DNA from: Candidatus Ornithomonoglobus sp.
GTDB lineage: Bacteria; Bacillota; Clostridia; UBA1381
DNA length: 24,000 nt
Assembly (NCBI GenBank): GCA_045537455.1
Contig: JAZSPM010000193.1
Location: 1-24,000, forward strand
Direction of reading: 5' to 3'
Position numbers and translations under genes: made by a program. Each line of letters starts with the position of its first letter. The first letter of the stretch is position 1. Positions 4,625 through 23,670 of this stretch are shown in pieces. The notes beneath the pieces were generated by a model, which saw nothing but the letters and a program-made list of their open reading frames with translations, was not told where the DNA came from and ran no database searches.

Positions 4625-4706
4625 ATTTTTCTCCTGATTGTGATTTGGTTCCTATATTATACCACATCACCGAAGAAAAATCAACACCTTGAAAGGAAGT
4701 GATCCT

Positions 4707-7118
4707 ATGCCCCTATCTCAAATTATCGTCACAAGCCGTTATCTCAAAAGCGGCAGTGCAAAGAGTGTGACGAAACGAAAAAACTACACAAAGTATATCG
4801 CAACCCGTGAAACCGTTGAAAAACGTGAGCAGAATCAATATGATCCCAATGTTGCTACCACGAAAACACAAAAGGAAATGCTATCCGAATTGCTCAGTGA
4901 CTTTCCCGAAGCAAAACGCTATCTTGAATATGAGGACTACACTGCAAATCCTACAGTGCAGAATGCAAGCGAACTGATCACAACAATCATTGAACGTCAC
5001 GCAGATGTCATTGGAAACCGTCAGAATTTTGTCGGTTACATGGCAAAGCGTCCCGGTGCAGAGCAGCGTGGTGCTCACGGATTATTCAATGATAGTGATG
5101 AACCCATCGTGCTGAATCAGGTTGCAGATGAGGTTGCACATCACAAGGGAAATGTATGGAGTCATGTAGTATCACTTCGCCGTGAGGATGCAATACGTCT
5201 TGGATATGATAACTCAGACCGCTGGCGTGAACTTGTCAAGCGGCAGATTCCTGTCATTGCAGAGCAGTCAAGAATCCCCATGAGCAATTTGAAATGGTAT
5301 GCTGCGTTTCATGATACGACGCATCATCCGCATATGCATCTGATTGTCTATTCCACCAATCCAAAGCAAGGCTATCTGAGCAGAGAGGGTATTGACAAAA
5401 TCCGTTCTGCGTTTGCAAATGATATCTTTCATGATGATCTGCAGAGCATCTATCAGGAGCAGACGCTGAGTCGTGACGAGCTGAAATCTATATCACAGGA
5501 ACAGGTGCATCAGATGGTAATGCAGATTCAGAACAGCACTTTCAATAATCCACAGTTGGAAAAGTTGGTGAAAAAGCTGCATGAACAATTGCAGACCGTC
5601 AGCGGTAAGAAAGTCTATGGCTATCTGCCGCAGGATGTGAAACGAACTGTTGATGACATCCTTGCAGAGCTTGCAAAGGACAAGCAAATATCACAGCTTT
5701 ATGAAAAGTGGTGTGAGTTGGAACGGCTGAAGCATAAGATCTATATCCAGAAAGAACCGGAACTCCCACCGCTTGCCGACAACAAGGTATTCAAGCCTGT
5801 GAAGAATATGGTTATCCGTGCAGTACTTGATATGAATATGCCAGAACCAAGCCCATACTCTGTTCCGCAGAATGATGACAGCGACGATACTGCTTTCAGC
5901 AATATTGATAACGACATCTTTACTTGGAGTGATGAAGATGCTGTTGAGGTTGAAGTTGAAAGTTCCAATCTGCACATTCAATGGTCGAAGGATTATAAAA
6001 GAGCCTGCAAACTGTATTACAAAAAGGATGCAACAGGTGACGAAAAGAAGGAAGCTGTGGAATTGCTTCACTCCGAAGCTGAGAAAGGAAACGTACTTGC
6101 CATTCATGACCTTGGAAAAGTGTATGCTGATGACAAAGAAAAGTCCGATGCATATTACAAGCAGGCACTTGATGGTTTTCTTGAGCTTGAACCAATGTCG
6201 CAAAAACTGCAGCCGTATCTGCAATACCGCATTGGTAAGATGTACTGCTATGGCTCAGGAACTGAACAGAACTACGCAGAATCATTCGGATGGTTTCTGA
6301 AATCCGCAATTGCAGGAAATAAGTTTGCACAGTTCAGTCTTGCAAATCAGTATTACTACGGAAACGGATTTTATAAAGACAAAGAACAGGCTCTGCAATG
6401 GTATATGAAAGCGGCAGAACAGGGATTGCCCTATGCAGCGTATGCCGTTGCACAGATGTATGCAAACGGTGAAGCGGTGGTGCAGAATAAAGAAAAGGCT
6501 CAGCAGTACTATGCACAGGCGCTTGACGGCTTTCTGAAATTTGAAAAAAGCGACCGTGCAGATGATAACCTGCTGTATAAGCTCGGCAGAATGTATCGAT
6601 ATGGACTTGGAACAGATGAGGATATTCCCCAAGCCTTGGAATACTTCTCACGTTCAGCAAAACATGGCAATAAAAATGCCAGACGCATGATTGCCATTGA
6701 GCAACTATCAGGTGAATACATTCCTCAGGATGTGAATAAAGCTGTGGAAACGCTCACAGAGCTTGCAGAAAATGGAGATGCGGCATCTGCATATCGGCTC
6801 GGCAAACTGTATCTCTTTGGTGCAGATGGTATTGAACGTGATGTGCCACAAGCAATACAATGGCTTACCCAGTCCGCAGAAGGTGGTAACGAGTATGCAC
6901 AACAGCTTCTTGATAACATGGAGGAGAGGGAAAACGCTGCATTCGCATCAACTATCTTCGGGTTGTTTGTAAGCTTAAGCCGTATGATTGAAGATGACTA
7001 TAACAGGAGTCATAAGAAACTGCAATTTAAAGTTGATAGTAAACTGCGTAGAGTTATCCTAAAAAGAAAACAGGAATTAGGTATTAATCCAGAAAATGGT
7101 CAAACGCAGACATTTTAA
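4707..7118 (+). CDS. MobL/MOB-P-type conjugative relaxase fused to C-terminal Sel1-like (SLR/TPR) repeats
   Basis: AAGGAAG at 4692-4698 precedes ATG 4707 (the track start 4689 is TTG). The N-terminus reads IVTSRYLKSG...KYIATRETVE. A histidine-triad motif HDTTHHPHMHLIVYS lies at nt 5310-5339 and onward. The C-terminal third contains repeated GN..A...LG..Y..G.G...D...A..W units. Confidence 0.8.
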   Translation: MPLSQIIVTSRYLKSGSAKSVTKRKNYTKYIATRETVEKREQNQYDPNVATTKTQKEMLSELLSDFPEAKRYLEYEDYTANPTVQNASELITTIIERHADVIGNRQNFVGYMAKRPGAEQRGAHGLFNDSDEPIVLNQVADEVAHHKGNVWSHVVSLRREDAIRLGYDNSDRWRELVKRQIPVIAEQSRIPMSNLKWYAAFHDTTHHPHMHLIVYSTNPKQGYLSREGIDKIRSAFANDIFHDDLQSIYQEQTLSRDELKSISQEQVHQMVMQIQNSTFNNPQLEKLVKKLHEQLQTVSGKKVYGYLPQDVKRTVDDILAELAKDKQISQLYEKWCELERLKHKIYIQKEPELPPLADNKVFKPVKNMVIRAVLDMNMPEPSPYSVPQNDDSDDTAFSNIDNDIFTWSDEDAVEVEVESSNLHIQWSKDYKRACKLYYKKDATGDEKKEAVELLHSEAEKGNVLAIHDLGKVYADDKEKSDAYYKQALDGFLELEPMSQKLQPYLQYRIGKMYCYGSGTEQNYAESFGWFLKSAIAGNKFAQFSLANQYYYGNGFYKDKEQALQWYMKAAEQGLPYAAYAVAQMYANGEAVVQNKEKAQQYYAQALDGFLKFEKSDRADDNLLYKLGRMYRYGLGTDEDIPQALEYFSRSAKHGNKNARRMIAIEQLSGEYIPQDVNKAVETLTELAENGDAASAYRLGKLYLFGADGIERDVPQAIQWLTQSAEGGNEYAQQLLDNMEERENAAFASTIFGLFVSLSRMIEDDYNRSHKKLQFKVDSKLRRVILKRKQELGINPENGQTQTF
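6050..6920 (+). other. Sel1-like repeat region inside the relaxase
   Basis: There are about 6-7 units of roughly 36 aa. Examples are AEKGNVLAIHDLGKVYADD, AIAGNKFAQFSLANQYYYGNGFYKDKEQALQWYMKAAEQGLPYAAYAVAQMYANGEAV, AKHGNKNARRMIA, AENGDAASAYRLGKLYLFGADGIERDVPQAIQWLTQSAEGGNEYAQQLL. Confidence 0.65.
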
Positions 7119-7125
7119 AATAAAA

Positions 7126-7161
7126 AGCGTATCGGATTGTGGTCAATTCGGTACGCTTTTT
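7126..7161 (+). terminator. intrinsic terminator after the relaxase
   Basis: agcgtatcgg...ttcggtacgct forms an imperfect stem followed by ttttt. It abuts the left copy of the 19-bp inverted repeat. Confidence 0.5.
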
Positions 7162-7177
7162 CGTCAATTCCGCTCAT
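7159..7177. repeat. left copy of the perfect 19-bp inverted repeat bracketing the recombinase gene
   Basis: tttcgtcaattccgctcat at 7159-7177 is the exact reverse complement of atgagcggaattgacgaaa at 8521-8539. Confidence 0.9.
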
Positions 7178-7256
7178 TTACGAAGTGATTATTGAGGTGA
7201 ATTTACGGTAACTTTAATTATATTATATCATAAATTTTGCAAATGTAAAGACTTTT

Positions 7257-7286: not shown

Positions 7287-7341
7287 AAGGCGAGTTTTAA
7301 AGTTTTTAAACCGTCATATTTCAGTCGGAATGGAGGATTTT

Positions 7342-8442
7342 ATGGCTAAACGAGGAAGTAATATTTATAAGCGCAAAGATGGACGTTTTGAAGGACGTGT
7401 ACCTGTAGGATATCAAGAAAATGGAAAAATAAAATATAAATCTGTTTATGCAAGGACACTTTCAGAAGTGAAAGAAAAAATGTCTGAAATTCGTTCTGTT
7501 AAGCAGAATTCATCAGTTTCAAAAATTAAATTAACTGTTAGGGAAGCAGCAGAGCAATGGTTATCCTCTGCGAAATTACGTGTTAAAGAGTCGAGCTATT
7601 TCAATTATTTGAACATCATAAAAAAGCATATTCTGCCTATTCTTGGTGGAGAGTTAATGATGAATTTGACAACGAATAAATTGAATAATTTTATTGACTT
7701 TAAATTGACAAATGGTAGATTAAACAGCAATGGTGGACTTTCAGCAAAATCAGTACGTGATATTATGACTGTATATCGTAGTATTGAAACATATGCATCA
7801 AGAGAATATGGAATCTGCGAGACACATTTTACAATGCCAAAAACACAAAGTAAAGGAACAGATATTCTTACTGTAGATGAAAGAAAAAAACTTGAAACTT
7901 TTCTTGTTGACAATCCCAATATAACAAATGTGGGTGTTTTGCTTTGCCTTTTTACAGGATTACGTGCAGGTGAATTATGTGGTTTGAAATGGGAAGATAT
8001 TGACTTCGATAATGGAGTTTTAAATGTAAAACGAACCGTACAGCGCATAACTAAAAACGGGAAATCACAGGTGATTGTAGGAACACCTAAAAGTAAAACA
8101 TCAGTGCGAACTGTTCCGATTCCAACATTTGTTTTGAATATAATGAAGAATTACAAAAGATATAATGATTTTTATATTATTACTGGTACAAGAAAACCCA
8201 CAGAACCTAGAACTATGCAGAACCGTTTTAAATCAATTTTAAGATTGTGTGACATAAGAAATGTCAACTTTCATCTGCTACGTCACACCTATGCTACAGT
8301 TTGCATTGAAAAAGGATTTGATCCTAAAACACTTAGTGAATTGCTTGGTCATGCTGATGCAGCTATCACATTGAACAGGTACTGTCATCCATCAATGCAA
8401 ATAAAAAAAGATTATGTAAGCCGTCTTACTTTCACTGCTTAA
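7342..8442 (+). CDS. tyrosine site-specific recombinase / integrase
   Basis: GGAGG at 7332-7336 lies 5 nt before ATG 7342 (the track start is 7330). The N-terminus has an arm-binding-type MAKRGSNIYKRKDGRFEGRV. The catalytic region has LFTGLRAGELCGLKWEDID, HLLRHTYAT and LGHADAAITLNRYCH (R..H-x-x-R..Y). Confidence 0.85.
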   Translation: MAKRGSNIYKRKDGRFEGRVPVGYQENGKIKYKSVYARTLSEVKEKMSEIRSVKQNSSVSKIKLTVREAAEQWLSSAKLRVKESSYFNYLNIIKKHILPILGGELMMNLTTNKLNNFIDFKLTNGRLNSNGGLSAKSVRDIMTVYRSIETYASREYGICETHFTMPKTQSKGTDILTVDERKKLETFLVDNPNITNVGVLLCLFTGLRAGELCGLKWEDIDFDNGVLNVKRTVQRITKNGKSQVIVGTPKSKTSVRTVPIPTFVLNIMKNYKRYNDFYIITGTRKPTEPRTMQNRFKSILRLCDIRNVNFHLLRHTYATVCIEKGFDPKTLSELLGHADAAITLNRYCHPSMQIKKDYVSRLTFTA

Positions 8443-8520
8443 TTTTTTAGCCGTCAGATTTTTGTATTTGCTATTTGAAAATAATGCTATTTTCGGCTAT
8501 TTATCTTGCTAATTTGATAT

Positions 8521-8539
8521 ATGAGCGGAATTGACGAAA
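8521..8539. repeat. right copy of the perfect 19-bp inverted repeat bracketing the recombinase gene
   Basis: atgagcggaattgacgaaa lies 79 bp after the recombinase stop and 75 bp before the -35 of the response-regulator promoter. Confidence 0.9.
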
Positions 8540-8613: not shown

Positions 8614-8642
8614 TTGCATTTTAATGTTTCTTGTGATACAAT
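8614..8642 (+). promoter_or_regulatory. sigma-A promoter with extended -10 for the regulator-kinase operon
   Basis: TTGCAT (8614-8619), a 17-nt spacer, then TGaTACAAT (8634-8642). The predicted transcription start near 8650 excludes the upstream in-frame starts at 8614 and 8644. Confidence 0.55.
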
Positions 8643-8676: not shown

Positions 8677-9408
8677 ATGTTGAGGATCGCAATTGTGGAT
8701 GACGAGGAGCATATTTGTGAGCAAGTGGAACGTTTATTACAGGAATGTTCTAAACAGATAAATGTTGACTTCCAAATAGAAATTTTTTATTCAGGTGAAG
8801 CGTTAATTTCAAAGTTAAAAGATGATGAAAAATTTGATTTAATCTTCCTTGATATTGAATTGTATCAATATAATGGTATAGACGTTGGACATTTTATTCG
8901 AGATGAATTGCTTGATGATTCTACTCAAATAGCATTTATATCGGGCAAGAATGGTTACGATAGACTTCTGTTTGAATTTAGACCAATACATTTTATTGAG
9001 AAACCTGCGACGTTGAGTAAAATACAAAACGTAATTACAAAGTATATTCGTATCTATGGACAACAAGGTGATGTGTTTAATTATAAAGTTAACAGAGACA
9101 CTTATTATGCTGATGTAAATAAAATCCTGTATTTCAAAAGTGATGACCGTAAGGTGATAATAGTAAGCAAAGATGATATCGATGAATTTTATTATTCAAT
9201 AGAAAAAATAGCACAGCAGTTAAAGAATAAAGGATTCTTTGTTCCTCACAGGAGTTATTTGGTGAACTATAGATATGTAAAATCTTTTCAGCTTAAGAAG
9301 ATTATTATGACTAATGGTGATGAGATACCGATCTCTGAAAACAGGAGGGCAGACGTCTTAAAAATACAGGTAATTATGGAAAATGGAGGTAAATTCTATG
9401 GACTTTGA
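8677..9408 (+). CDS. agrA: LytTR-family response regulator (AgrA-like)
   Basis: GAGAGGA at 8662-8668 precedes ATG 8677 (MLRIAIVDDEEH...). There is a receiver domain (IFLDIEL phospho-acceptor context). The C-terminal LytTR domain reads ILYFKSDDRKVIIV...FFVPHRSYLVNYRYVKSF...MTNGDEIPISENRR. Confidence 0.85.
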   Translation: MLRIAIVDDEEHICEQVERLLQECSKQINVDFQIEIFYSGEALISKLKDDEKFDLIFLDIELYQYNGIDVGHFIRDELLDDSTQIAFISGKNGYDRLLFEFRPIHFIEKPATLSKIQNVITKYIRIYGQQGDVFNYKVNRDTYYADVNKILYFKSDDRKVIIVSKDDIDEFYYSIEKIAQQLKNKGFFVPHRSYLVNYRYVKSFQLKKIIMTNGDEIPISENRRADVLKIQVIMENGGKFYGL

Positions 9409-10669
9409 TTTGTACACATGGGTTTACCTTATAACAAATCTATTTACGCTTGCAATTGTTCATAGGTTTATGGGAGCTTTTTTTGACGAAATAATTAAGC
9501 CTAAATGGCATATAATTATTTCGTATGCGTTGTACTTTGTTTTTACCAGTGCGATGTATCTAATATGGGATATACCCGTACTTGCGATGATAGTCAACTT
9601 AATACTACTCTTTGTTATAACGTTGAATTATAGATCTAGCTTAAGAAAAAAACTTTTTGTTGTAATATTCTTTTATATTTTTATGTTTGTTACTGAAGTT
9701 ATAGTATGTGCGGTGACGGGATATTTCAATTTTCCTATGTTTAATAGTGGTAATTACAATAATTCAACAGGACTGGTAGTAATGAGATTGGTTGCTTATT
9801 TAGAATCTATAGTTTTTTGTAATATAAAGTCTTTAAGGAAAAATGATATTGTTACTATACCACAATGGATAGCAACATTATTTATTCCAATTTCAACTCT
9901 TGTTATGAAAGTACTTGTTGTTGATTCTGAAAATGCTAGTCAGTTTCAAGTAATCTCATCGACAATAATCATATTTTTGATTAATCTTCTTACGTTTTTC
10001 TTATATAATTCTTTATCTAAAAGTTATGCTAAAGAAAAAGTGACTGCACTAATAAGTAAAGAAAAGGAAATGTACTATAATCAATGTCTTCTTATGCAAG
10101 AAACTAATGAGCATTTACAGGGTTTTCGTCATGAAATAAACAATCAATTTATATCGATGAAGGAGTTAATAAATAAACATATGTATAATGAATTAGATGC
10201 TTTTGTTGAGAAACTTACTGAAAAACTTGAAATAGAGAAAATATACAGCAATACAGGGAATGTTGTAGTTGACAGTATAATCAACTACAAGTTAAATCTA
10301 TTAAATAATGCTGATGTTGTAACAGAAATAGCAGTACCATCTTCGTTAGAAGTTGATATAAATGACATGGTTATCATATTAGGTAATATTCTTGATAATG
10401 CGGTTAAGGCACTTAATGAAAATGAAAAGGATTCAAAGTTGTATTTTAAGTTAGTATATAGTCAAGGAAGATTACTCATAAAAGAAACGAATACCTACAA
10501 AACAAGAATATGTTATGAAAACGGTAAAATTCAATCAAGCAAAGCAGATAAAGCCAATCATGGTTTGGGCTTGAAAAATGTAGAGGATGCTGTTAAAAGA
10601 CATGATGGATATATGGAGATAAATCATAATGACAATATTTTTTCAATAGATATCATATTGTTTGTTTAA
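9398..10669 (+). CDS. agrC: AgrC-like membrane sensor histidine kinase (GHKL, HPK10-type)
   Basis: GGAGG at 9385-9389 precedes ATG 9398, and the start overlaps the regulator stop by 11 nt. The N-terminal half has about 6 hydrophobic helices. The H-box is FRHEINNQF, the N-box is LGNILDNAVKA and the G-box is NHGLGLKNVEDAV. Confidence 0.85.
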   Translation: MDFDLYTWVYLITNLFTLAIVHRFMGAFFDEIIKPKWHIIISYALYFVFTSAMYLIWDIPVLAMIVNLILLFVITLNYRSSLRKKLFVVIFFYIFMFVTEVIVCAVTGYFNFPMFNSGNYNNSTGLVVMRLVAYLESIVFCNIKSLRKNDIVTIPQWIATLFIPISTLVMKVLVVDSENASQFQVISSTIIIFLINLLTFFLYNSLSKSYAKEKVTALISKEKEMYYNQCLLMQETNEHLQGFRHEINNQFISMKELINKHMYNELDAFVEKLTEKLEIEKIYSNTGNVVVDSIINYKLNLLNNADVVTEIAVPSSLEVDINDMVIILGNILDNAVKALNENEKDSKLYFKLVYSQGRLLIKETNTYKTRICYENGKIQSSKADKANHGLGLKNVEDAVKRHDGYMEINHNDNIFSIDIILFV

Positions 10670-10683
10670 CAAATAATAGTATA

Positions 10684-10718
10684 ATGCCTTGTAAGTAAAT
10701 TGCTTACAAGGCATTTTT
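10684..10718 (+). terminator. strong intrinsic terminator after the kinase gene
   Basis: atgccttgtaag-taaattg-cttacaaggcat is a perfect 12-bp stem followed by tttt. Confidence 0.8.
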
Positions 10719-10771
10719 ACTGCAAATAACACAGGATTTCACAGCAATCAAAATAAAATACAATTTTTTAA

Positions 10772-10780
10772 TGCTATAAT
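10772..10780 (+). promoter_or_regulatory. extended -10 promoter element upstream of the AgrD-like ORF (activator-dependent type, no good -35)
   Basis: TGcTATAAT lies at 10772-10780. The -35 position (about 10752-10757) reads aataaa, a poor match as in activator-dependent agr promoters. ACAG-type imperfect direct repeats lie upstream at 10731, 10741 and 10760. Confidence 0.5.
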
Positions 10781-10817
10781 AAACCTGCCAAAAAATATAA
10801 AATAAAGGGGTGTTATT

Positions 10818-10961
10818 ATGAGAAAATTTTTAATTAAATTTAGCGGATTATTTGCAGCATTCGCATTATGTGTTACAACTTTAACTGAGAATTCAACTTG
10901 TTTTTTTTGTGCTCATCAGGAAGAAATGCCTGCTAATTCAAAGAAACTCCGTAAATTTTAA
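10818..10961 (+). CDS. agrD: AgrD-like autoinducing-peptide precursor (47 aa; below the ORF-track size cut-off)
   Basis: My translation is MRKFLIKFSGLFAAFALCVTTLTENSTCFFCAHQEEMPANSKKLRKF. It has an amphipathic leader, a Cys-containing core and a charged tail. The tail Pro lies 6 residues after the predicted cleavage point (CFFCA|HQEEMP), the same spacing as S. aureus CDFIM|DEVEVP. The RBS is AAAGGGG at 10804-10810. The stop overlaps the agrB-like start (TAATG at 10959-10963). Confidence 0.75.
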   Translation: MRKFLIKFSGLFAAFALCVTTLTENSTCFFCAHQEEMPANSKKLRKF

Positions 10962-11542
10962 TGTTTAGGGATATTTCATCAAAATTAACAGACAAGCTTA
11001 TAAGCTTAAAAACAATTGATCCAGAAGATAGAGAAATATATGAATTTGGAATACAGCATATTTTTATTACTATTTTTAATATATCTACAGTTCTACTACT
11101 TGGACTTCTGCTAGGTGATCTTAAGGAGGCTATGATTTTTATTTTTGCTTTTATACCATTAAGGATATTTGCAGGAGGTTTCCACTTTAATTCACCAATA
11201 ATGTGCTACATATTTTCTTCATGCTTTGTAGCGGTAGTTCTTTTGGCAATGAGATATTTAAGCATTCCGCTTCTCATTTACTGCTTGCTATATTGCCTGT
11301 CTGGTATTATAATACTGACTTTTGCACCGGTAGAGGATAAGAATAAGCCTTTGGATCAGCTTGAAAAAAAGGTGTACAGGAAAAGAACGATAATTGTATT
11401 TGTTGCAGAAAATATGATTATGTTGTTATTCTGCTCCTTAAAATTCTACATTGCAGCAAAATGTATTATGGTGTCAATAATTGCTTTAGGATTATTAATT
11501 GTTTTAGGCGTAATAAAAAATTATTTGCTAAGCGTCAAATGA
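10961..11542 (+). CDS. agrB: AgrB-like membrane endopeptidase (AIP maturation)
   Basis: 193-aa polytopic membrane protein. The motif PLRIFAGGFHFNSPIMCY has His and Cys 7 residues apart, as for the catalytic H77/C84 pair of S. aureus AgrB. It is translationally coupled to the AgrD-like ORF. Confidence 0.8.
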   Translation: MFRDISSKLTDKLISLKTIDPEDREIYEFGIQHIFITIFNISTVLLLGLLLGDLKEAMIFIFAFIPLRIFAGGFHFNSPIMCYIFSSCFVAVVLLAMRYLSIPLLIYCLLYCLSGIIILTFAPVEDKNKPLDQLEKKVYRKRTIIVFVAENMIMLLFCSLKFYIAAKCIMVSIIALGLLIVLGVIKNYLLSVK

Positions 11543-11547
11543 TTTTT

Positions 11548-11608
11548 ATCAGTATACATTCGTAATTGGTTGTTATGCATACTGGAAAAGGATGTATACT
11601 GATTTTTT
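11548..11608 (+). terminator. long-loop terminator / possible attenuator between agrB-like gene and toxin gene
   Basis: atcagtatacat (11548-11559) pairs perfectly with atgtatactgat (11592-11603), followed by a T-run to 11608. A third near-copy, atgcatactg (11575-11584), in the loop can also pair with the 5' arm with one mismatch. Confidence 0.5.
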
Positions 11609-11647
11609 ACAAGCAAAAATTAAAATTATTTCTAATGGGGAGGGTAT

Positions 11648-11746
11648 ATGAGAAATTTAAATAATCTCAAAAGAGTAGTAAGCGGTGTTCTTAGTGTTAC
11701 TTTGCTGGCTAACTTTGGAACAATATTTCCGATGAATGCATTTGCC
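11648..11746 (+). other. Sec-type signal peptide of the toxin
   Basis: MRNLNNLKRVVSGVLSVTLLANFGTIFPMNAFA|NEE has a basic n-region, a hydrophobic core and an AFA cleavage-type site. Confidence 0.7.
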
Positions 11747-14700
11747 AATGAAGAAATTGAAGAACAAGCAGACTCTATTAATGAAACAACTGGTCACAGG
11801 TACCAATTAATTGATACATCGATGAGTTGGACCGAAGCTGAGGAGTATTGCGAAAGCCTTGGTGGACACCTTGTTACAGTAAATTCAAGCGATGAGCAGC
11901 AGTTCATTGTTGATAATCTGTTAACAATAGGAACAAAAAATGCATACTTTATCGGTATGTACAGAGATGACATTGATAGTGACTGGAAATGGGTAACAAA
12001 CGAATCTACCGAATTTTTTAACTGGGATGAAGGAGAACCAAGCTATACAGATGATAATTATGTGTATATGTATGGTTCAAATTTCAATTCAGGCAGTTGG
12101 AAAAACACGCAGAACTATGTAGAGGATTCAACTGAATTCTCAACAGCTAATATAGGTTATATATGTGAATGGGAAGCTGAAGAATCTGAAGTTGAAGTAG
12201 AGAGAAGAATGAAGAACTACGCTCTTTTTTCAGCAAGCAGTTCAACAGATTTCAGTTATTCTGGCTGGAAAAGTAATATCATAGGCAATATTTATAGTGG
12301 TTCATCTTTTAAATATGGTGGATCAGAGTTCAGCGTTACAGGAAGGGTTGATACCGTAAATTCTATTTCTGCTGATGGCTGGAAGATAGAAATCAATGAA
12401 AGAAATGAAAACATTGCTCCAGTGGAAATGGAAGATTTTGATAAGGTTATTCATGATAACGCACAGCCCTATGATTATTACGAAGAAAATACTGTGTATA
12501 TACAGGATTTGAATGTAATAGATAAGTCGATAAAGATTTCTGGCGACGTTGAAATCGGCGGAACAACTTTTGAAGGTGATTGCTATATTATTGCCGACGG
12601 AAATATTACATATAATGTTAATGATTTCAATTCTACAGGCAGGGTATTCTTATACTCCCAAAACGGAAATATTACTATAAATGGAACAAACGTTAACATA
12701 AACGGAGGCATTTATGCACCTAATGGTAACGTTTCTTTTAATATATACGAAACAAATCTTAATGGTTTTGTATGGGCTGACAGTATAACATATAGTGGCA
12801 GTATTTTTAATGTAACTGCTAATAATTTTGATATGCTTGAACCGAGAAGTGTAGTTAAGACTTATACTATCGATGCCGATTTTAACGAGGGACAGTTCAA
12901 CGGACTTGGCTTGGATGTTTCTGATGAATTGACTTTAACATCTGGCAATAAAGCAGTTGAAACACCTTCTGAAAGAATATATGGCGATTCGGAAACCGGC
13001 AAAGGAGTAAAGGTTACTTATTCAACAGATAAATCTGCTGTCACAGGTGATGGAGATAATGTTACTGTAAAGTACGGACTTGGCGGATTCGGTGAAGCAG
13101 ATGTAACTGAAAATGCAGTTGATCTTATTATTGTAGTTGATGAATCCGGTAGCATGGCCGGAAATCGTATGACAAATACTAAGTCAGCAGCAAAACAGAT
13201 TATTTCACAAATGAAGGAAGTTGATCGTTGTGCGGTTGTTGGATTTACCGGCAGTTCAAATGTAAAACAGAATCTGACATCTGACAAAGATTTGCTTAAT
13301 AAAGCTGTTGATAAACTTTATGCTAGTGGCGGAACTGCGATTTACTCAGGAATTGATAAAGCACTTGCAATGTTTGATGAACAGAGTGAGGATAGTAGAC
13401 AGAAATATATTATTCTTTTATCAGATGGCGAAGACGGATATGAAGCACGTTCTCTTCAATCAGCAACAACTGCTGGCAATAGCGGAATACGAATTTTCTC
13501 AATGAAAATCGGAAGCGGAACTCTTCAGATGCAGAATATTGCTATCAATAGCAATGGAATATATAAGAATGCACCTACAGCAGATGATATTGTTAAAATA
13601 ATGTCATACTTTGCTTCTGAAGTGTTTAACGTAGCAGGAAGAAACACCACATTTAAGACTACTATCAAGGATATAAATTCTGTTGATATTTCTTCTCTTA
13701 GTCCAGAACCCTCAAAAATAATGGAAAACGACGACGGAAGCGTTTCTGTTGAATGGAATTTTGATAGAATAACTATCGATGAAGAAATGGAAATTAATAT
13801 TCCTTTGACTGTAACTGGCGATAATAACGGATTTGTTGACCTTCTTGAAAATACATCATGCGTCTATTACGATAGAAATGGTAAACCAAATGTAATATAT
13901 GCCGAAGATGCATTTTTACCGATAAGCGATTATGTTGATAATGGTAACTGGACAGTTATTTTTGATAGTGAAAGAGAAACTGTTGAGTGGGATAAAATTT
14001 ACTGGAATGGTAACAGATATGGTGATGGTGAAATTTCAGTATATGTTTCTTCCAGTAATGATGGAGAGAATTTCTCAGAGCCTGTCAAGATTGAAAACTT
14101 TGAACAATTCTCTGGCGTGGTAGGCAGATATGCTAAAATTAGTGTAGATATGAAAGTATCTGCTGATGGAAGAACCCCTGAGTTGTATGACATTACAATT
14201 GTATCAAAGGATGCAGTTGTTACAGATTTAGAAAACAATTCCCCTGTCGCAGAGATTGTTTCAAAGAATAATACTAAAGTTAATGTTCCGATGACAGTTA
14301 GAGCTGATCTTGCAGATGATTGCCTGAAATCAAATATAACTGTTTCATGGGACTGCGAAAGTGACAATTTGAAGTTTTCTAGTTCTTCAGAACTAATTAC
14401 ATCTGTAATTTGTTCCGAAACAGGAAGCTATGAAATAATCTGTACTGTAAATGACGGTGAAAAAACTGTTCAAAGTTCAAAAACTATTGTTTGTGAACCG
14501 GCAGATAGCTATGCAAATATTGATCCTGATAATCAGGACGAGGCTGCAGCACCTGAAATCAATGTTGTACTTCCTAAATATGCTGACAGAAAAGAAACCA
14601 TTAACGCACAGATTGAAAAGCTTAATGATACAGAAATTTCCTGGTATTCTGTAATTTTCAATGGTAATACAGCAGTTGATGTAACTGATGATGGAGCATT

Positions 14701-17700
14701 TTCTCTTGTTATGCCTAATAAAGATGGAACCTATAAGGTTGTTGTCAGAGCATTTGATTGGGCTGGTAAGTCTGATGTTAAGGAATATTCTATAATAGTT
14801 GACAGTACTGTAGCTGCTATTGAAATAAAGCCATCTTCTGAGGAAACAACAATCAATTCAGATGCATATTTCAAAGTATCAGTCGCTGCTGCTCATAAAA
14901 TTAAAGAAATTGTTTATACTTTGAACGGAAAGCAGATTGCCATTCCCGAAGATGGCATTTTACCTGTAGATACCAATGTTGAAGCAGAATATGTTCTTGA
15001 AGCTAATGGTATTACTACATCCGGTAAAACGCTTAAAGCTTCTGCAAAGATTACTGTAATTGAAGAAGATTCAGAAAAGCCTGTTGTTAATATCACTTTT
15101 GATAAAAATAGCTATAACGAGAAACAGAATGCTGTTATAACAGTAAAAGCAACTGATAATGTAGGTGTAACTTCACTTGTTGTATTACTTGATGGTAAGG
15201 AAATCGTTCTTGACGGCAATGGACAGTTTTCGATTACAAATATGAAATACGGTGAATACGTTATTACAGCAAATGCTTATGATGAAGCAGACAATAATGG
15301 TAGTGCTACAAAAACATTAACCGTAAAGGATGTAACAAAGCCTACCCTTTCATTAACTGTTGATAAAACGGAAATAGACGTTGGAGAAACAGTTAATATT
15401 TCTGTTGACGCTGCTGATAACAATGGTGTTGTAAATACAGTATTAACTGTAAATGATAAAGAACTGGAACTTTCAGAAGATAACTCTGTATCTTTCAAAC
15501 CTGATACAGCAGGGACATATACTATAAAGGCTGTAGCATCTGATCCTTCTGGAAATAGTCTTACAAAGAAGGTAACTGTCACAGTTAAAGAAGTTGATAC
15601 AATTGCTCCAATTGTTACTATTTCCTTTGATAAGGATACTTATTTTGAAACTGATGATATTGTAATTAATGTTTCCGCAACAGACAATGTTGGAGTAACC
15701 GATATAGCCTTATTAATTGACGGAACTGAAGTTGAACTTAATGCAGAAAATTCATACACTATAAAAAAAGCTGAATTAAAGAATTATACAATCACAGCTA
15801 AAGCTTATGATGAAGAAACCAATGAAGGAACTGCTACTGAAACTGTTGTAGTAAATGAAGCAAAAGCACCAGAGATTAATGTAACATTTGACAAGGACAT
15901 TTACAATGAAGGCGATTCTTTACAGGGTCTTGTAACAGTTCAGGGTCAGAGCGAAATTATCTCTCTTACAGCAAAAGTGAATAATCAGCCTTTAGCACTT
16001 GAAAACGGTATATTTACACTTAGTAATCTTGAAGCAGGTGAATATACATTTACCTTTACTGCTGAAGATGTAAGAGAAAAGACATCAACAATTAATAAAA
16101 CCATTACTGTTATTGATGAAGAACATAAAGCTGATGAGAGATTGTATGCTGTTGTTGATGGTCTTGTTGAGTATGGTAAATCAGCAATGTACAAGGTTAC
16201 AGCCTCAGATGATATTGATAAGTCTACTATTTTAGTAACCTTAAACGGTGAAAAAATTGAACTGACGGATGAATATACATACGAATTTAAGGGCGAAAAA
16301 CTTTTTACAAATGAATTCATTTTAACAGCAGAAACTGTTGATGGTGAAATTCTTACTGTTAAAAATTCAGTGCTGGTTTACGAAACTGAAAAACCAACTG
16401 TTACAGTAGTTCTTAATAAAGACAAGGATATTCAGGAACATGATGATATTGTAATAACAATAACTGCAGAAGATATTTCCGGAATAAGAAAAATCCAGTG
16501 CTTATATGATGGCGTAGAAATTCCTCTTGATGAAAACGGACAGATGTTCATCAATGATTTTGAAGTAAGACCTCATTCGGTTGTTATAAGAGCATGGGAT
16601 AATTTCGGTAACCTCAGATCATATCTCCTTTCATTCTATGTAGTAGAAACAGAAGTATCAGGCGGTGGTTCTGTTTCTGTTGGTGGCAATACAGAAGATA
16701 CAGAGTCCAAAACATTGATTGCGGATATTTATACACCAATTAATGAAGATGTCATTTCTTGTCCTTCGTATATTTTCGGTCGTGCAGACGGTACAGAATT
16801 TGAAAAATACAGATTGGAATACCAGTCAGCAGCAGGTGGAGATTATGTTCTTATCAGCGAAGGAACAGAAAAAGTAAATAATGGTTCTTTAGGTGAATTT
16901 GATACAACTATGCTCCGAAACGGACTTTATAACATCAAGCTTACTGTATGGGGTAAGAACGGTGAAGTAACCTCTGATGAAATTATTGTTTCTGTTGAAG
17001 GTGAGATGAAAATCGGTAACTTCTCACTTGATTTTCAAGATATGGATCTCAATGTAGCTGGAGCTCCGGTTACAGTAATAAGGGGCTATGACAGCCGTGA
17101 CAGAAACATAAGCGGAGATTTTGGCTATGGTTGGAATCTCTCTACCTGCGGTGTAACTGTTACAAAGAGCTGTGACCTTAGTCGTAATTGGGATATGCAG
17201 CAAAAAGGATATAATATTTCTTACACCCCCACAAAACCTCATATTATATCAGTTAACTGGGGTAATGGCAAAGTTGAGAAATTTGTAATGGAAGCTAAAA
17301 GTGATGGTGCATCAACATTGAAAACAGCTTCATTCACTTTCAAGTCAATGGATGGAAGTAACTCTAAACTTTTCCCAAATATTACAACTGGAGCATGGAT
17401 TTATGAAAACGGGTATTTCTTTAAGTTAGATGAAGAGTGGGATGATATACCTTTTAATCCGGATGTATGGCAATTAAATAAAGCTGATGGTACAAAGTAC
17501 CTTATTAGCTGTACAAATGGAATTTTAGCTTTTGCTGATGCAAATGGAAATCAGATTAAATTTAATAAGGATGGAATTGAAAACTCTGATGGTGAAGAAA
17601 TTTCAATTATTCGTGACAGTAATGACAGAATTACAAGCATTTCATCTCCAACAGGTAAAACAGTTTCATATGAATATGATGAAAATGGAGATCTTGTAAA

Positions 17701-20700
17701 GGTTATTGATATTTCAGGATATGAAACAACCTTTGAATATGATAATCATTATCTTACTGCTATTATCGATCCCAGAGGTGTAACAGTATCAAGAAATATT
17801 TATGATGATAACGGCAGACTTATCAAAACAATTGATGCAGACGGAAATGAAATCGTTTACGACCATGACATTGACGGTCGTGAAGAAACCATTACCGACC
17901 GCAATGGTGGAATTACAAGATACGTTTATGACCATAACGGAAATGTGACTTCACAGACCGATCCAATGGGCAATACTGTAAAGAATACCTACGACAGTAA
18001 TGGTAATCTTTCATCAAAAACTGATGCTATGGGCAATGTAACCAATTACAGTTATGATGATAACGGCAATATGCTTGGAATGACAGATGCCGAGGGAAAT
18101 ACTGTTACAAATGAGTATAACTCCAAAGGCTTTATTACATCAATTAATGCTATGGGCATTGATATTATGAGCGTTACATATGACGAAAAAGGCAATACTT
18201 CATCAACTATTGACGCTCTGGGTAATGAAATTAATTACAGCTATGACAGCAAGGGTAATCTTGAGTCTGTTACTGATGAAATAGGTACATATATGAATAT
18301 GACCTATGACAGCAAGGGAAATGTAATTTCTGCAACAAACGGTGCTGGTACAACGGCTGAATTTACGTATGACAGCGACGGAAACTGTCTTTCTAAAACG
18401 CTTACATATACATCGGGCGAAGTGACAAAGACCGTCACAGAAAATTATACATATGATGAATCTGGAAATCTCGTTAAAATTATTGATAGCGATGGAAATA
18501 TTACAACAACAGAATATAACAGCATTGGTAAAATTTCTGTTGCTACAGATGAAAAGGGCAGACAGACCTTATATGATTATGACAGTCTTGGAAATGTTAT
18601 AAAGATTACCTATGCCGACGGCACTTCTGAATCCTTTACATATGACCGTGAGGGTAATAATCTGACAGCAACAGATAGACTTGGCAGAACAGTTACAATG
18701 AAATACGACAAGGTTGGAAACCTTATCAGCAAAACCTATCCAAATGGTGCAGCTGTAAAGTATACATACGATGCAAATTATAATCTTACATCAACCATAA
18801 GTGCAAGCGGCAATGAAACCAAGTATGAATATGATGCAATTGGCAGAAATACCGTAATCATTGACGCACTTGGAAATCACACAGAATTCACATATAACTC
18901 TCATTCTCAGCTTAGCAGTATGACCGATGCGAACGGAAATGTGTATACCTATACCTATGATGATAATGGTAACAGAACAGCTACCACATATCCTGACGGT
19001 TCAAGTGTTTCTTCCGCATATGATGCAAGAGGCCGTGTAATAAGTCAGACTGATCAGCATGGATATACAACTTCATATACATATGACGGTGCTGACCGAC
19101 TTACAAGCGTTACTGACGCACTCAGCAATGTGACAAGCTATACTTATAACGAAGTTGGAAATCTTATTAAAGTAACCGATGCAAATAATCATTCTACACT
19201 TTACACTTACGATGATTTCAGCAGAGTAATTAAAACAACAAATGCACTTGGCCAAACAGCTGAGGTTACATATGATATCTGCGGAAATGTTCTGACATCA
19301 ACAGATTTCGGAGGAAAGCTTACTTCATTCACATATGATGAGTTTGATAGGGTTATCGAAAAGAAAACTGCTGACGGTACAGTAACATATTCCTATACAA
19401 CAGACGGAAAGCTTTCATCCGTTACAGACAAGACAGGTACTACAAAGTATACTTATGACAGCATGGATGGGCTCAAAAAAGCAGTATATCCTAATGGCGA
19501 ATATGTTGAATACACCTATGATGATGCAAGCAGACTGACAGGAGTAAAAACTTCTTACGGCACAACATCCTATGAATATGATAAGCTTGACAGACTTGTA
19601 AGAGTTGTAGACAGAAACGGATATGCTACAGTATATGAATATGACAAAAATGGTAACAGGTCAGCTGTAAGATATGCCAACGGAATTGTAATAACTTACA
19701 AATATGACGAGGTAAACCGACTTATATGCGAAAAAGCCCTTGACAAACAAGGTGGAATTGTGGCACAATATGAATATACCCTTGGTGCAGCAGGAGAGCG
19801 AACAGCAGTCAAGGAACTTGACCGTACAGTAGAGTACACATATGATGCGCTTTACAGACTGACAAGCGAAAAGATAACTGCGGCTGACGAAACTGTAACA
19901 GAGTATACATACGCTTATGATAATGTAAGCAACCGTATCTTGAAAACCGAAAATGGTGCTAAAACAGTCTATACCTACAATGCTCTCAATCAGCTTGTAA
20001 AGGAAAATGACGCTGTTTACAAGTATGACGATGCAGGAAATCTTATTTCCACAACATCGGCAGATAAGTCAGCTACATATACTTACAATGCTGAAAATAA
20101 GCTGATTCGTGCTACTGTTCAGGAGGGCAATAATGTTTCTGTTGAGGAATATGAGTATGACTATGCAGGAAACAGAATCGTAAAGAAGTCTGAAAACGAC
20201 TATACTTATTATCTGAATGACATAAGCGGAAGTCTTACACAGGTTCTTGCAGAGCTTGATGCGGACGGAAATGAAAAGTGCTGGTACACAAGAGGAATTG
20301 AAATTATTTCTCAGGAGCGTAACGGTGATGTTTCATACTACCTTACAGACGGTCATGGTTCAGTAAGACAGCTTTCTGATTCTACTTGTGCAATAACGGA
20401 TACTTATGTATATGACGCATGGGGCAATTTGATTTCATCAACTGGCAATACTGAAAATAGCTATCTCTACTGCGGCGAACAGCTTGACAGCACAACAGGT
20501 CTTTATTATCTCCGTGCGAGATATATGAACCCCACAACAGGTACGTTTATCTCAATGGATACGTATCAGGGTACAATTTTCGACCCGACTTCTCTGCATA
20601 AGTATCTTTATGCTAATGCGAATCCTGTGATGAATGTTGATCCGAGTGGATATTTCACACTTGCAGAAGTAAATGTTTCAGGTGCTATAAACAATATTCT

Positions 20701-21929: not shown

Positions 21930-22853
21930 ATGGAAGATTTTTTAAAATGGATAAAAAACACGTTTGATACTAACTTGCCAAATGATTATCTGCAATTTTT
22001 GTTATCTTATGATGAAAGTAGTGTTGTAGGAAAAGTTTTTCAGTTTTTTGAAAATGAAAAATTAACCTCAACTGATATTCATTATTTTTTTAAAATAGGA
22101 AAAAACAAAATGAATTGTATCGAATGGAATTATAATAATTATTTATCAGAGGATATAATTCCAGCATTTTTCCTACCTATAGCGGAAGATAGTGGAGGCA
22201 ATCTTATTTGTTTAAGCATGGATGTTGAGAATTACTCTCGCATATATTTTGTTTTACATGATAGCTTTGAAATGACATATTTTTTTGTAGCTAATAGTTT
22301 TTCAGAATGGTGTTCAAAGATGTATTCTCAACAGATAAATAGGCAAAATGATGAAAGTAATACTATCTATACATTTAAAAAATATGGTAGCGGGATTTAT
22401 TCAAATGGCATCACCAAAGATAGTTCCAATGTAGATGTATCGGAGTTTTCCTACAGTACTATTGACGAATTTATGGCTAGAGAAAAAATAGATTTTCCAC
22501 TTTTGTTGTACAACTTTTACAGTTCAACAGACGGAATAGAAATCAATAGAAAAATTGAGTTTATTTGCAAAAAAACAAAATTTTCTGTAGAAATATCAAC
22601 TGTTTTGCCTTTTGATGAGGCTGAAAAGAAATATTATAAAATGGCTAAGTCTGAACCTAAAATGGCAGATTATTTCCCTATTGCTATATCATCCAATATA
22701 AATTTTATAGCATTGCTAAAAGTACGTAAAAAAAATAAGGGAAAAATATATTTTTGGAACGCGTTCAACAGAGATATCGTTGAGGCATATGATTCAGCAG
22801 ATGATTTTTTGGGTGAACTAGGTATTGAACCTCATTCTCTTGATGAATCTTAA
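21930..22853 (+). CDS. tandem SMI1/KNR4 (SUKH) domain immunity protein, presumed cognate to the WHH toxin
   Basis: GGAGGAA precedes ATG 21930. Domain 1 reads LPNDYLQFLLSYDES...IAEDSGGNLICLSMD...FVANSFSEWCSKM. Domain 2 reads IDFPLLLYNFYSSTDG...FPIAISSNINFIALL...IYFWNAF...AYDSADDFLGEL. It lies directly 3' of the toxin gene. Confidence 0.8.
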   Translation: MEDFLKWIKNTFDTNLPNDYLQFLLSYDESSVVGKVFQFFENEKLTSTDIHYFFKIGKNKMNCIEWNYNNYLSEDIIPAFFLPIAEDSGGNLICLSMDVENYSRIYFVLHDSFEMTYFFVANSFSEWCSKMYSQQINRQNDESNTIYTFKKYGSGIYSNGITKDSSNVDVSEFSYSTIDEFMAREKIDFPLLLYNFYSSTDGIEINRKIEFICKKTKFSVEISTVLPFDEAEKKYYKMAKSEPKMADYFPIAISSNINFIALLKVRKKNKGKIYFWNAFNRDIVEAYDSADDFLGELGIEPHSLDES

Positions 22854-22906: not shown

Positions 22907-23359
22907 TTGTTGACAGTTCAACCGATCGTAACAGGTGCAGAACTTGAAAAGCTTACTGAGCCAATTAAGGTTTATAACCTTGAGGTTGAGGATTTCAATA
23001 CCTACTTTGTTGGTGATGAAGCTGTTTTGGTGCATAATTATCTTGATAAAAGTGATCATGCAAAGCATAGGCAGGCTGAAGGAAGAAATGTAGGTACTGC
23101 TGGACACGATTTGAATAATGCGAGACCTTCGGATGTTTACATTCAAAATAATGATGGTCGCTATGTACTTAAGGGAAATAATGGGAGAGTTCATATATTT
23201 GAACCAGATGGAGAACTTGTAACAACAATGAATAAAGTTACCAATTTCTCAAAACGAGTATCAAGTGGAAGATATTCTCCATTAAGTCTTAAACAAATAT
23301 CAGAATTTATAGAAATCTTTGGCGAATTTTTAAATAAGAATTGGAATGGATACAGATAA
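22907..23359 (+). CDS. orphan toxin cassette: HINT C-terminal fragment fused to an alternative, unassigned toxin domain (no credible start or RBS of its own)
   Basis: The frame opens right after TAG 22898-22900. Residues VTGAELEKLTEPIKVYNLEVEDFNTYFVGDEAVLVHNY match the resident ITGSELEQLSETIKVYNLEVADFNTYFVGDNAVLVHNY. The sequence then diverges into LDKSDHAKHRQAEGRNV...DGRYVLKGNNGRVHIFEPDGELVTTM (105 aa). Confidence 0.75.
   Translation: MLTVQPIVTGAELEKLTEPIKVYNLEVEDFNTYFVGDEAVLVHNYLDKSDHAKHRQAEGRNVGTAGHDLNNARPSDVYIQNNDGRYVLKGNNGRVHIFEPDGELVTTMNKVTNFSKRVSSGRYSPLSLKQISEFIEIFGEFLNKNWNGYR
22931..23041 (+). repeat. HINT 3' homology block, orphan copy 1
   Basis: aaggtttataaccttgaggttgAggatttcaatacctactttgttggTgatGAAgctgttTtggtgcataaTtat differs from the resident 21398-21472 at only a few positions. 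Confidence 0.85.
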
Positions 23360-23670
23360 TGAAGAAGTCTAATTTATCATATTTGGAAAAAATATATCGA
23401 CGATATATAGAAGATGTTGCTATGGAAATATCTATAGATAAAAAGTTTAGGGATAGATTATTAAATGCTTCATATGGGGAACAACTGGAAATATCTCAAA
23501 AAACGGCAAGCCACTGCAAGTATTTAAACCATATCCTATCAAAAGGACTTGTATTTGTAGTTGAAAAGGTTTACGAGTGTACAGAAACATTTGATAAGGA
23601 CTTAACAATTTTTAAATTTTCTGCAAAAGATTTTCCTAACATCATAAGATATACTGGTAATAATATTTAG
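23359..23670 (+). CDS. small hypothetical protein, presumed immunity partner of the orphan toxin cassette
   Basis: ATG 23359 overlaps the cassette stop (TAATG at 23357-23361), the same coupling as agrD/agrB. The product is 103 aa (MKKSNLSYLEKIYRRYIEDVAMEIS...). I recognise no family. The role is inferred from position. Confidence 0.6.
   Translation: MKKSNLSYLEKIYRRYIEDVAMEISIDKKFRDRLLNASYGEQLEISQKTASHCKYLNHILSKGLVFVVEKVYECTETFDKDLTIFKFSAKDFPNIIRYTGNNI

Follow-up and report, generated by a model that had tools for sequence, protein, structure and literature searches.

In a 24,000-nucleotide stretch of DNA from Candidatus Ornithomonoglobus sp. (the window throughout this text; positions are those of the whole stretch), an open reading frame (ORF) of 47 codons at 10818-10961 on the plus strand had been put forward, in an initial annotation made from the sequence alone, as the precursor of a cyclic signal peptide of the AgrD type. 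Our results indicate that this ORF is, to judge from its sequence and those of its relatives, a genuine and fairly ordinary clostridial-type agrD signal-peptide gene, and that it belongs to a complete agrA-agrC-agrD-agrB cassette in which all four genes appear intact. We hold with good confidence that the agrAC pair and the agrDB unit behind it make up a complete clostridial-type agr cassette, borne by a mobilisable element of a gut Ruminococcus-like Firmicute, and that the peptide of the cassette would be matured, would induce its own synthesis and would drive the output of a large toxin in the ways proposed below.

The agrD gene and its cassette

The agrD ORF starts at an ATG and encodes a peptide of 47 amino acids (aa), MRKFLIKFSGLFAAFALCVTTLTENSTCFFCAHQEEMPANSKKLRKF, in which a leader (residues 1-27, 10818-10898), a predicted ring C28-F-F-C31-A32 (10899-10913) and a charged tail H33-F47 (HQEEMPANSKKLRKF, 10914-10958) follow one another on the plus strand. 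Hydropathy places the hydrophobic segment of the peptide at residues 4-22, and Pro38 is the sixth residue past Ala32. A Shine-Dalgarno sequence on the same strand (AAAGGGGTG, 10804-10812) lies 5 nucleotides (nt) ahead of the ATG, and the TAA stop codon (10959-10961) gives its last A to the ATG of agrB (10961-11542), so that the two genes share a TAATG overlap. The coordinates, length, ribosome-binding site, overlap and key residues (Cys28, Cys31, Ala32 and Pro38) given in the initial annotation were all correct. Its remark that the ORF is missing from the ORF track also holds, the frame being absent at the default cut-off of 60 aa and listed at 30 aa.

Membership of the AgrD family is supported by a hidden Markov model comparison, which had been proposed as a check: the peptide matches the NCBIfam model TIGR04223 ('AgrD family cyclic lactone autoinducer peptide') with 30.9 bits (E 2.2e-7), above the curated cut-off of 19, and the match runs over residues 7-43 of the peptide, equal to positions 2-38 of the 38 in the model. 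The peptide belongs under this broader family and not under the Pfam AgrD family PF05931. Together with the one-base overlap and the adjacent Pfam AgrB gene, the match bears out the earlier description of an AgrD precursor whose translation is coupled to that of an AgrB peptidase. Substitutions within the frame tell a similar story. In a comparison of four lineages, with AgrBs 54-68% identical to that of the window, nucleotide differences in agrD at codon positions 1, 2 and 3 numbered 5/4/15, 8/8/25 and 8/8/18, and this third-position bias points to a translated frame. A word-indexed homologue search with the peptide returned only 6 close clusters. Many independent contigs from metagenomes and genomes have the exact peptide, or a variant 81-96% identical to it, annotated as a gene, without exception in the same position, and the slot between an AgrC-like kinase gene and agrB is kept in about 100 related loci.

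The product of agrB (10961-11542, plus strand) is a 193-aa membrane cysteine peptidase/cyclase (Pfam PF04647, E 6.7e-43; 146.6 bits, cut-off 23). In Staphylococcus aureus AgrB, residues R70, G75, H77 and C84 are required for AgrD cleavage (PMC10196373). The window AgrB has R68, G73, H75 and C82 with the same spacing, and all four are invariant in an alignment of 17 homologues that reaches down to 28% identity. Searches of the PDB with AgrB, both as a single sequence and as a profile, found no solved relative. Its closest counterparts in species-representative genomes are those of Candidatus Ruminococcus hominiciens (62%), of a Ruminococcus flavefaciens metagenome-assembled genome (MAG; 54%) and of other Ruminococcus MAGs, and the contigs that carry the window peptide come largely from gut metagenomes. 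Upstream of agrD lies the gene for an agrC-like sensor histidine kinase of 423 aa (9398-10669, plus strand; Pfam HATPase_c_5 3.3e-18, with a weak match to the NCBIfam AgrC model). About 6 hydrophobic segments lie in the kinase up to residue 200, its His box reads FRHEINN (H245), and it ends in a GHKL domain. Before it stands an agrA-like response regulator of 243 aa with REC and LytTR domains (8678-9408, plus strand; Pfam LytTR 6.6e-18, Response_reg 5e-11). The mechanical ORF of the regulator begins at a TTG at 8614; we place its start at the ATG at 8678, and relatives are called as genes of 243 aa.

The initial annotation had stated that the regulator-kinase pair comes first and that the order agrACDB has been reported for the second agr locus of Clostridioides difficile, and both statements stand. 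A LytTR regulator and a polytopic GHKL kinase lie directly 5' of agrD-agrB on the same strand, and the agr2 locus of C. difficile R20291 has the order agrA, agrC, agrD, agrB, the reverse of that in S. aureus (PMC3754575). The order is less remarkable than it had been made out to be, as agrC is found directly 5' of agrD-agrB in the majority of the related loci sampled and agrC-agrD-agrB is thus the norm among them.

The predicted ring, its second cysteine and the proposed peptide maturation

Our view of the AgrD family comes from two samples. For one, 78 loci around AgrB relatives were pooled with 14 further contigs carrying the peptide or its variants, and small ORFs at most 400 bp from agrB were taken in a profile search seeded with the window clade. 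The 69 distinct AgrDs obtained in this way lie, with one exception, immediately 5' of agrB, and most of them overlap it by one base. They share a hydrophobic leader, the motif N-[ST]-[AT], an invariant Cys, four variable residues, the motif [H/Y]-Q-[P/E]-x-[L/M]-P and an end of the form ...KKLRKF. The other, independent search ran the window-clade profile over 1.84 billion proteins, each standing for a 50%-identity cluster in a set of about 15 billion, and found 234 family members at E <= 0.001; among the best 150, 120 were parsed, and the residues directly before the Cys were NST in 45 and NSA in 17 of these 120. In the family register Cys28 of the window peptide is the invariant Cys and Ala32|His33 is the boundary between ring and tail (C28-x4-H33Q34).

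Published peptides fall in comparable registers. The likely natural autoinducing peptide (AIP) of Clostridium perfringens is the tail-less ring CLWFT, followed in the precursor by His (PMC7300355), and the C. difficile AIP is listed in a table of rings as ANST[CPWII], in the same register as the window AgrD (PMC12312760). In S. aureus AgrD1 the Cys is C28 and cleavage occurs at M32|D33 (PMC10196373). The predicted cleavage after Ala32, giving a ring C-F-F-C-A, agrees with the fixed register of the family and with the C. perfringens and C. difficile rings, and we regard this five-residue ring as well supported by these comparisons. The tail proline from which that prediction had been drawn fits the family layout at Pro38, but its description as conserved is not absolute, since one sister lineage has Ser in its place. 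In that lineage (L015, L094 and L102 among our handles for related sequences) the AgrD is MKKFIMKYSGVLAALALVVTTLTANSTCVYCVHQPKMSENCKKLRKF, with a ring CVYCV that keeps the Cys at position 4 and a tail HQPKMSENC that carries both the Ser and an extra Cys; Cys18 in the leader of the window clade is Val or Ala there.

The second cysteine of the ring, Cys31, had been singled out as unusual, which it is not in this family. Beside related AgrBs, an extra Cys within the five-residue ring was found in 16 of the 69 distinct AgrDs, or 13 of 52 distinct rings (CCFCI, CCFIM, CCFLV, CFCIM, CFFCA, CFYCA, CICIT, CIWCT, CLCIV, CMCIA, CMCYA, CVCIM and CVYCV), in hosts from Ruminococcus, Lachnospiraceae, Anaerovoracaceae, Oscillospiraceae and other groups. 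Over these 13 rings it stands at position 2 in three, at position 3 in six and at position 4 in five, and never at position 5. The cluster-representative search gave an extra ring Cys, again almost always at position 2, 3 or 4, in 11 of the 120 parsed representatives (11 of 107 distinct rings), and three unparsed representatives also have one. Both samples are biased, the set of 69 towards relatives of the window AgrB and the other by a profile built from two-Cys peptides; hence, while a second ring Cys is recurrent in clostridial AgrDs, we put its true frequency at roughly 10-25% of rings. Because the extra Cys moves round the ring from lineage to lineage and the first Cys is fixed, we read it as a variable ring residue, and the earlier suggestion of an alternative ring closure, with Cys31 as the cyclisation nucleophile in place of the invariant Cys28, was rejected. 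In the clade whose cassettes are linked to an RHS toxin (see below), every ring has Cys at position 4, and variation is seen at positions 2, 3 and 5 (CFFCA, CFYCA, CFYCV and CVYCV). Literature searches for the core strings CFFCA, CFYCA and NSTCF... and for two-cysteine AgrDs or AIPs found nothing relevant, and no characterised AIP in the table of PMC12312760 has a second Cys in its ring.

In the maturation pathway that we propose, the hydrophobic leader would bring AgrD to the membrane, where AgrB would use Cys82 and His75 to cut between Ala32 and His33, leaving an acyl-enzyme at Ala32. The thiol of the invariant Cys28 would capture this intermediate to give the five-residue C-F-F-C-A thiolactone, and the leader would be removed at or beside the conserved N-S-T|C junction; the near-invariant N-S-T/A before the Cys fits a fixed site of leader cleavage at that residue. 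Clostridial AIPs examined by mass spectrometry (MS) are without an N-terminal tail and have undergone an S-to-N acyl shift to homodetic lactams with a free thiol (PMC8251862). By analogy, a tail-free thiolactone from the window would probably rearrange in the same way to homodetic cyclo(CFFCA), in which Cys28 and Cys31 would both be free thiols. Cys31 would then be one of the variable ring residues that determine specificity, and the mature peptide would be sensed by the polytopic AgrC kinase.

A putative agrD promoter, the RHS toxin and the mobile element

Behind agrC lies a terminator-like hairpin with a T-run (10683-10719, plus strand; 16-nt arms, 94% complementary; -23.7 kcal/mol, z -7.7), which separates agrAC from agrDB and has an equivalent in L007, L015 and L016. 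This and the other hairpins were found by repeat search and folding; a consensus terminator scan, limited in loop and GC content, gave none. Two 11-bp direct repeats follow on the plus strand, TTTTACTGCAA at 10715-10725 and TTTCACAGCAA at 10737-10747, 22 bp apart from start to start, and nowhere else in the window does this motif form a tandem pair. Beyond them is an extended -10 box, TGcTATAAT (10772-10780, plus strand), without a good -35 box, which we take as a putative autoinduced agrD promoter. Four lineages with AgrB identity of 54-68% all keep the hairpin, both repeats, their 22-bp spacing and the -10 box; in these lineages TA[TC]AAT stands at a fixed distance from the second repeat and is followed by an invariant TGCCAAAAA. 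LytTR activators such as AgrA, ComE and PlnC usually act on paired repeats about two helical turns apart, at promoters without a -35 box. From the conserved paired repeats and the promoter without a -35 box we infer that agrD-agrB has an AgrA-dependent, autoinduced promoter separate from that of agrAC, and the repeats at 10715-10747 suggest themselves as a candidate binding site for the LytTR domain of AgrA. Phosphorylated AgrA bound there would activate the agrD promoter and so close a positive feedback loop. An Rfam scan of the window found nothing, and thus no RNAIII-like family, and a tRNA scan found no tRNA attachment site.

The gene that follows the cassette (11648-21841, plus strand) encodes a secreted polymorphic toxin of 3397 aa, built of C-type lectin, VWA and Ig-like domains, an RHS/YD shell, a PT-HINT domain and a C-terminal WHH/colicin-DNase domain (Pfam values: RHS_repeat 2.9e-130, PT-HINT 5.2e-25, WHH 2.9e-12 and Colicin-DNase 1.7e-11). 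A tandem SUKH-1 (SMI1/KNR4) protein is encoded next to it (21930-22853, plus strand; Pfam SMI1_KNR4 1.3e-22, in two stretches) and is presumably the immunity protein, and an orphan PT-HINT fragment follows at 22907-23359. Together these genes form a textbook polymorphic RHS toxin locus. At its end, 22907-23670 holds the orphan fragment of PT-HINT plus toxin together with a small overlapping ORF, which may be the immunity gene of that fragment.

The order integrase-agrA-agrC-agrD-agrB-giant gene (lectin/VWA/RHS) is kept throughout the clade, from 100% down to 54% AgrB identity and over about 40 contigs. Between agrB and the giant gene stands a hairpin with a T6 run (11548-11609, plus strand; perfect 12-nt arms; -20.1 kcal/mol, z -4.1), which has a counterpart in L007 and L015 and is a probable attenuating terminator or processing element. 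Two direct repeats, 11575-11586 and 11592-11603, can each serve as the partner of its 5' arm (ATCAGTATACAT, within 11548-11603), so that alternative structures 5' of the toxin gene are possible; in the fold of minimum energy the distal repeat is the one paired. Only 20-45 nt separate the hairpin from the ribosome-binding site of the toxin gene (about 40 nt in the window, about 20 nt in L015), and no plus-strand promoter-like site or repeat pair was found between the post-agrB hairpin and the toxin gene. A toxin promoter of its own, dependent on AgrA, was rejected on these grounds. As there is neither room nor a site for a promoter 5' of the toxin gene, we propose that transcripts begun at the agrD promoter probably run through the hairpin, which would act as an attenuator, and cover the gene together with agrDB; this read-through is the weakest link of the model. 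Transcription past the hairpin would lead to expression of the RHS/WHH nuclease toxin, and the output of toxin would be tied to the density of cells that carry the same element.

More distant cassettes are followed by other large genes, for RHS proteins (L058, L063 and L069) and for RTX-repeat (L021 and L029), CBM2-thermolysin (L025), CBM2-TSP3-lipase (L036) and CBM2-VWA proteins (L034 and L067), which suggests a modular arrangement in Clostridia of a quorum-sensing cassette plus a large effector. L039 is also among the related clostridial cassettes with a large secreted protein directly 3' of agrB. Roughly two in three related agr loci lack a giant gene downstream; hence, the arrangement is a tendency and not a rule. 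A literature search for agr together with RHS or polymorphic toxins found no paper that links them.

On its other side the cassette adjoins mobile-element genes. A MobL-family relaxase of 809 aa, fused to about five C-terminal Sel1 repeats, is encoded at 4689-7118, and a TraG-like fragment also lies upstream of the cassette in the window. Just upstream of agrA is a gene for a tyrosine integrase (7330-8442), flanked by 22-nt inverted repeats (IRs) at 7159-7180 and 8518-8539. The left IR is abutted by a bidirectional-looking hairpin at 7122-7161, 3' of the relaxase gene, and a similar hairpin abuts an IR in L021. An outward promoter, TTTACA-16-TG-TATAAT (7249->7222, opposite strand), lies inside the IR segment beside the IR at the 5' side of the integrase gene and is the best-conserved block in the segment; in the window it faces the hairpin behind the relaxase gene. 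In every lineage checked, IRs of 20-28 nt stand about 1340-1370 nt apart around an integrase gene just 5' of agrA, and their arms co-vary between lineages, being quite different where the integrase is only about 50% identical.

The segment is reversed relative to agr in L007, L010, L071 and L080, where the promoter faces agrA. L007, a gut-metagenome contig, has two different cassettes of agrACDB plus giant gene, at L007:1-7551 (minus strand) and L007:7716-20144, which diverge from a single IR-flanked integrase segment. The second of these has a 47-aa AgrD ORF (called as 51 aa) with the ring CFWIN, and the homology of L007 to L008, which has a single cassette, breaks exactly at the IR. Both orientations are seen only between lineages, and in one lineage 24 of 24 contigs share one orientation. 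We regard the segment as a candidate for a Hin-like invertible switch that contains its own recombinase, or for a pair of IR sites at which elements fuse or recombine as a hot spot. A literature search for invertible promoters in connection with Ruminococcus or quorum sensing found nothing relevant. An exact look-up of the window integrase gave no record, and a related integrase, P0321, was used in its place for a survey of contigs. In the lineage of P0321 (L093/L094:999-5527) a second, XerC/D-like integrase of 301 aa lies at the edge of the element beside chromosomal glycosyltransferase genes, and the element also encodes MobL, a helix-turn-helix protein and an AAA_25 ATPase. The presence of this second integrase suggests that the 366-aa integrase next to agrA is probably not the integration enzyme of the element.

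Alternative readings and related systems

Several observations weigh against our reading of a complete, self-inducing and toxin-coupled cassette. A search of Pfam with the window peptide returned no family at E <= 1, the staphylococcal-type AgrD family PF05931 included, and every step beyond gene identification is one that we infer. The direct repeats differ from the AgrA box of S. aureus and single copies of their motif occur at chance frequency in the window, and the case for their function would come down to their pairing and conservation. The post-agrB hairpin resembles a competent terminator (-20 kcal/mol plus T6) and might leave the toxin weakly coupled or not coupled at all. The most sceptical interpretation, that the ORF is a chance frame or encodes a non-signalling small peptide such as a bacteriocin or leader peptide in a cassette that is an inert passenger, can point to a short frame of 47 codons in AT-rich DNA and to the missing Pfam match. 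It is effectively refuted, and we give it almost no credence: the NCBIfam match is above its cut-off, the family layout, including position, length, agrB overlap and motif, is kept in about 100 loci, substitutions across the codon positions indicate coding constraint, and the four agr genes are intact with their catalytic residues kept. A stronger challenge is that the cassette controls something else, such as transfer of the element or distant genes, and that the toxin is controlled independently. The strong hairpin with T6 ahead of the toxin gene and the two thirds of related agr loci without a giant gene would be expected under this view; the strict synteny of the clade, the lack of room for a promoter and the repeated occurrence of large secreted proteins 3' of related cassettes would not. 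We therefore treat independent control of the toxin as a real but unlikely alternative, and retain read-through from the agrD promoter as the working model.

The chemistry of the mature peptide is open to two further interpretations. The signal may be a staphylococcal-style thiolactone with an exocyclic tail (e.g., T- or NST-CFFCA) in place of a rearranged homodetic cyclopeptide, and such a tail, if the AIP kept one, would block the S-to-N shift. Tails are predicted in the published table for the AIPs of C. difficile (ANST[CPWII]) and Clostridium botulinum (PMC12312760). Against this, all clostridial AIPs detected by MS in PMC8251862 are tail-free lactams, the C. perfringens AIP is considered tail-less (PMC7300355), and N[ST][AT] before the Cys is strongly conserved, as the counts of NST and NSA given above illustrate. 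A tailed thiolactone is in our view rather unlikely, and the tail-free cyclo(CFFCA) remains the preferred product.

Cys31 could also be a functional novelty, allowing an alternative ring or a Cys28-Cys31 disulfide and hence a redox- or oxygen-sensitive signal. The invariance of the position-4 Cys in the RHS-linked clade, amid variable positions 2, 3 and 5, speaks for this, as does the share of Cys among residues at ring positions 2-4 in the family, roughly 3-9%, which seems high for this amino acid. A tail-free, rearranged AIP as in PMC8251862 would moreover present two free thiols three residues apart. On the other side, the extra Cys is at position 2, 3 or 4 according to lineage and sometimes occurs twice (CCFCI), leaving no fixed partner geometry; no known AIP has a 7-membered ring such as would result from closure of Cys31 onto Ala32; thiols would stay reduced in a gut anaerobe; and the literature searches turned up no paper on two-Cys AIPs. 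We consider a special function for Cys31 improbable, and a disulfide or redox role is pure speculation. Still further down the scale is the combination of a tail-free dithiol cyclo(CFFCA) whose thiol/disulfide state gates AgrC and licenses the RHS toxin, all under an invertible promoter segment in a gut Ruminococcus, to which we assign only a slim chance. The preferred reading of Cys31 is that of an ordinary variable residue of the ring.

A matching logic is known from loci of the Blp, Pln and Com type, where a LytTR regulator, working with a secreted peptide and an HPK10 kinase, turns on an antibacterial weapon and its immunity function by way of direct repeats. The peptides there are linear and of the double-glycine kind and the weapons are small bacteriocins, whereas in the window the signal would be an AgrB-cyclised peptide and the presumed output is a 3397-aa RHS nuclease. 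Among agr systems, agr2 of C. difficile R20291 resembles the window in its agrACDB order with the regulator-kinase pair first, its LytTR AgrA, its AgrD of 46-47 aa ahead of AgrB and its lack of RNAIII (PMC3754575). One transcript of the four genes has been suggested for agr2 (PMC3754575); in the window, agrC is parted from agrD by a hairpin and a separate, putative promoter that bears the repeats. The ring tabulated for agr2, [SSWVA], has a Ser nucleophile (PMC12312760), in place of the Cys and second ring Cys of the window. A further difference is that the window cassette has an RHS toxin gene behind it and integrase and relaxase genes beside it. The C. perfringens AgrD, like that of the window, has a five-residue ring that begins with Cys and is followed by His (CLWFT-H and CFFCA-H), and its AIP, thought to be tail-less, controls toxin production (PMC7300355). 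It differs in having agrBD only, in the order B-D, with an unlinked VirSR and no second Cys. For maturation, the likely model is Rc-AIP1 of Ruminiclostridium cellulolyticum (PMC8251862), which follows the same AgrB/AgrD logic by analogy; its ring, CWFWSY, has six residues and one Cys, whereas that of the window is predicted to have five residues and two thiols. The agrBDCA system of S. aureus has four homologous components, an AgrD with C28 and a tail Pro six residues past the cleavage point, and an AgrB with the same R/G/H/C set, as in the window; its AgrD is cleaved after residue 32, as predicted for the window peptide, and its AgrA acts on direct repeats, as is proposed for the window. The S. 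aureus gene order is reversed, its tail reads DEVEVP against HQEEMP, its repeats differ in sequence, and the window has neither an RNAIII-like Rfam match nor a match to the Pfam AgrD model.

As an AgrD, the window ORF adds little, since it is already covered by an NCBI model and gut AIPs have been mined on a large scale (PMC11953309). Its interest lies elsewhere. One point of interest is the second ring Cys, recurrent in clostridial AgrDs at about 10-25%, and with it the chemistry of AIPs that would carry two thiols after an S-to-N shift. Another is the RHS-linked clade, where a quorum-sensing cassette appears hard-wired to a polymorphic RHS toxin; it is a clean case, open to testing, on a mobilisable element from a prominent gut genus. 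If the coupling is true, deployment of the toxin would depend on the density of element carriers. The integrase segment between the IRs, with the promoter that faces outward from it, is a third point, as a candidate phase switch that may gate the whole agr-toxin cassette. Should the coupling, the switch and the dithiol redox reading all prove true, a mobile interbacterial weapon would be under three layers of control.

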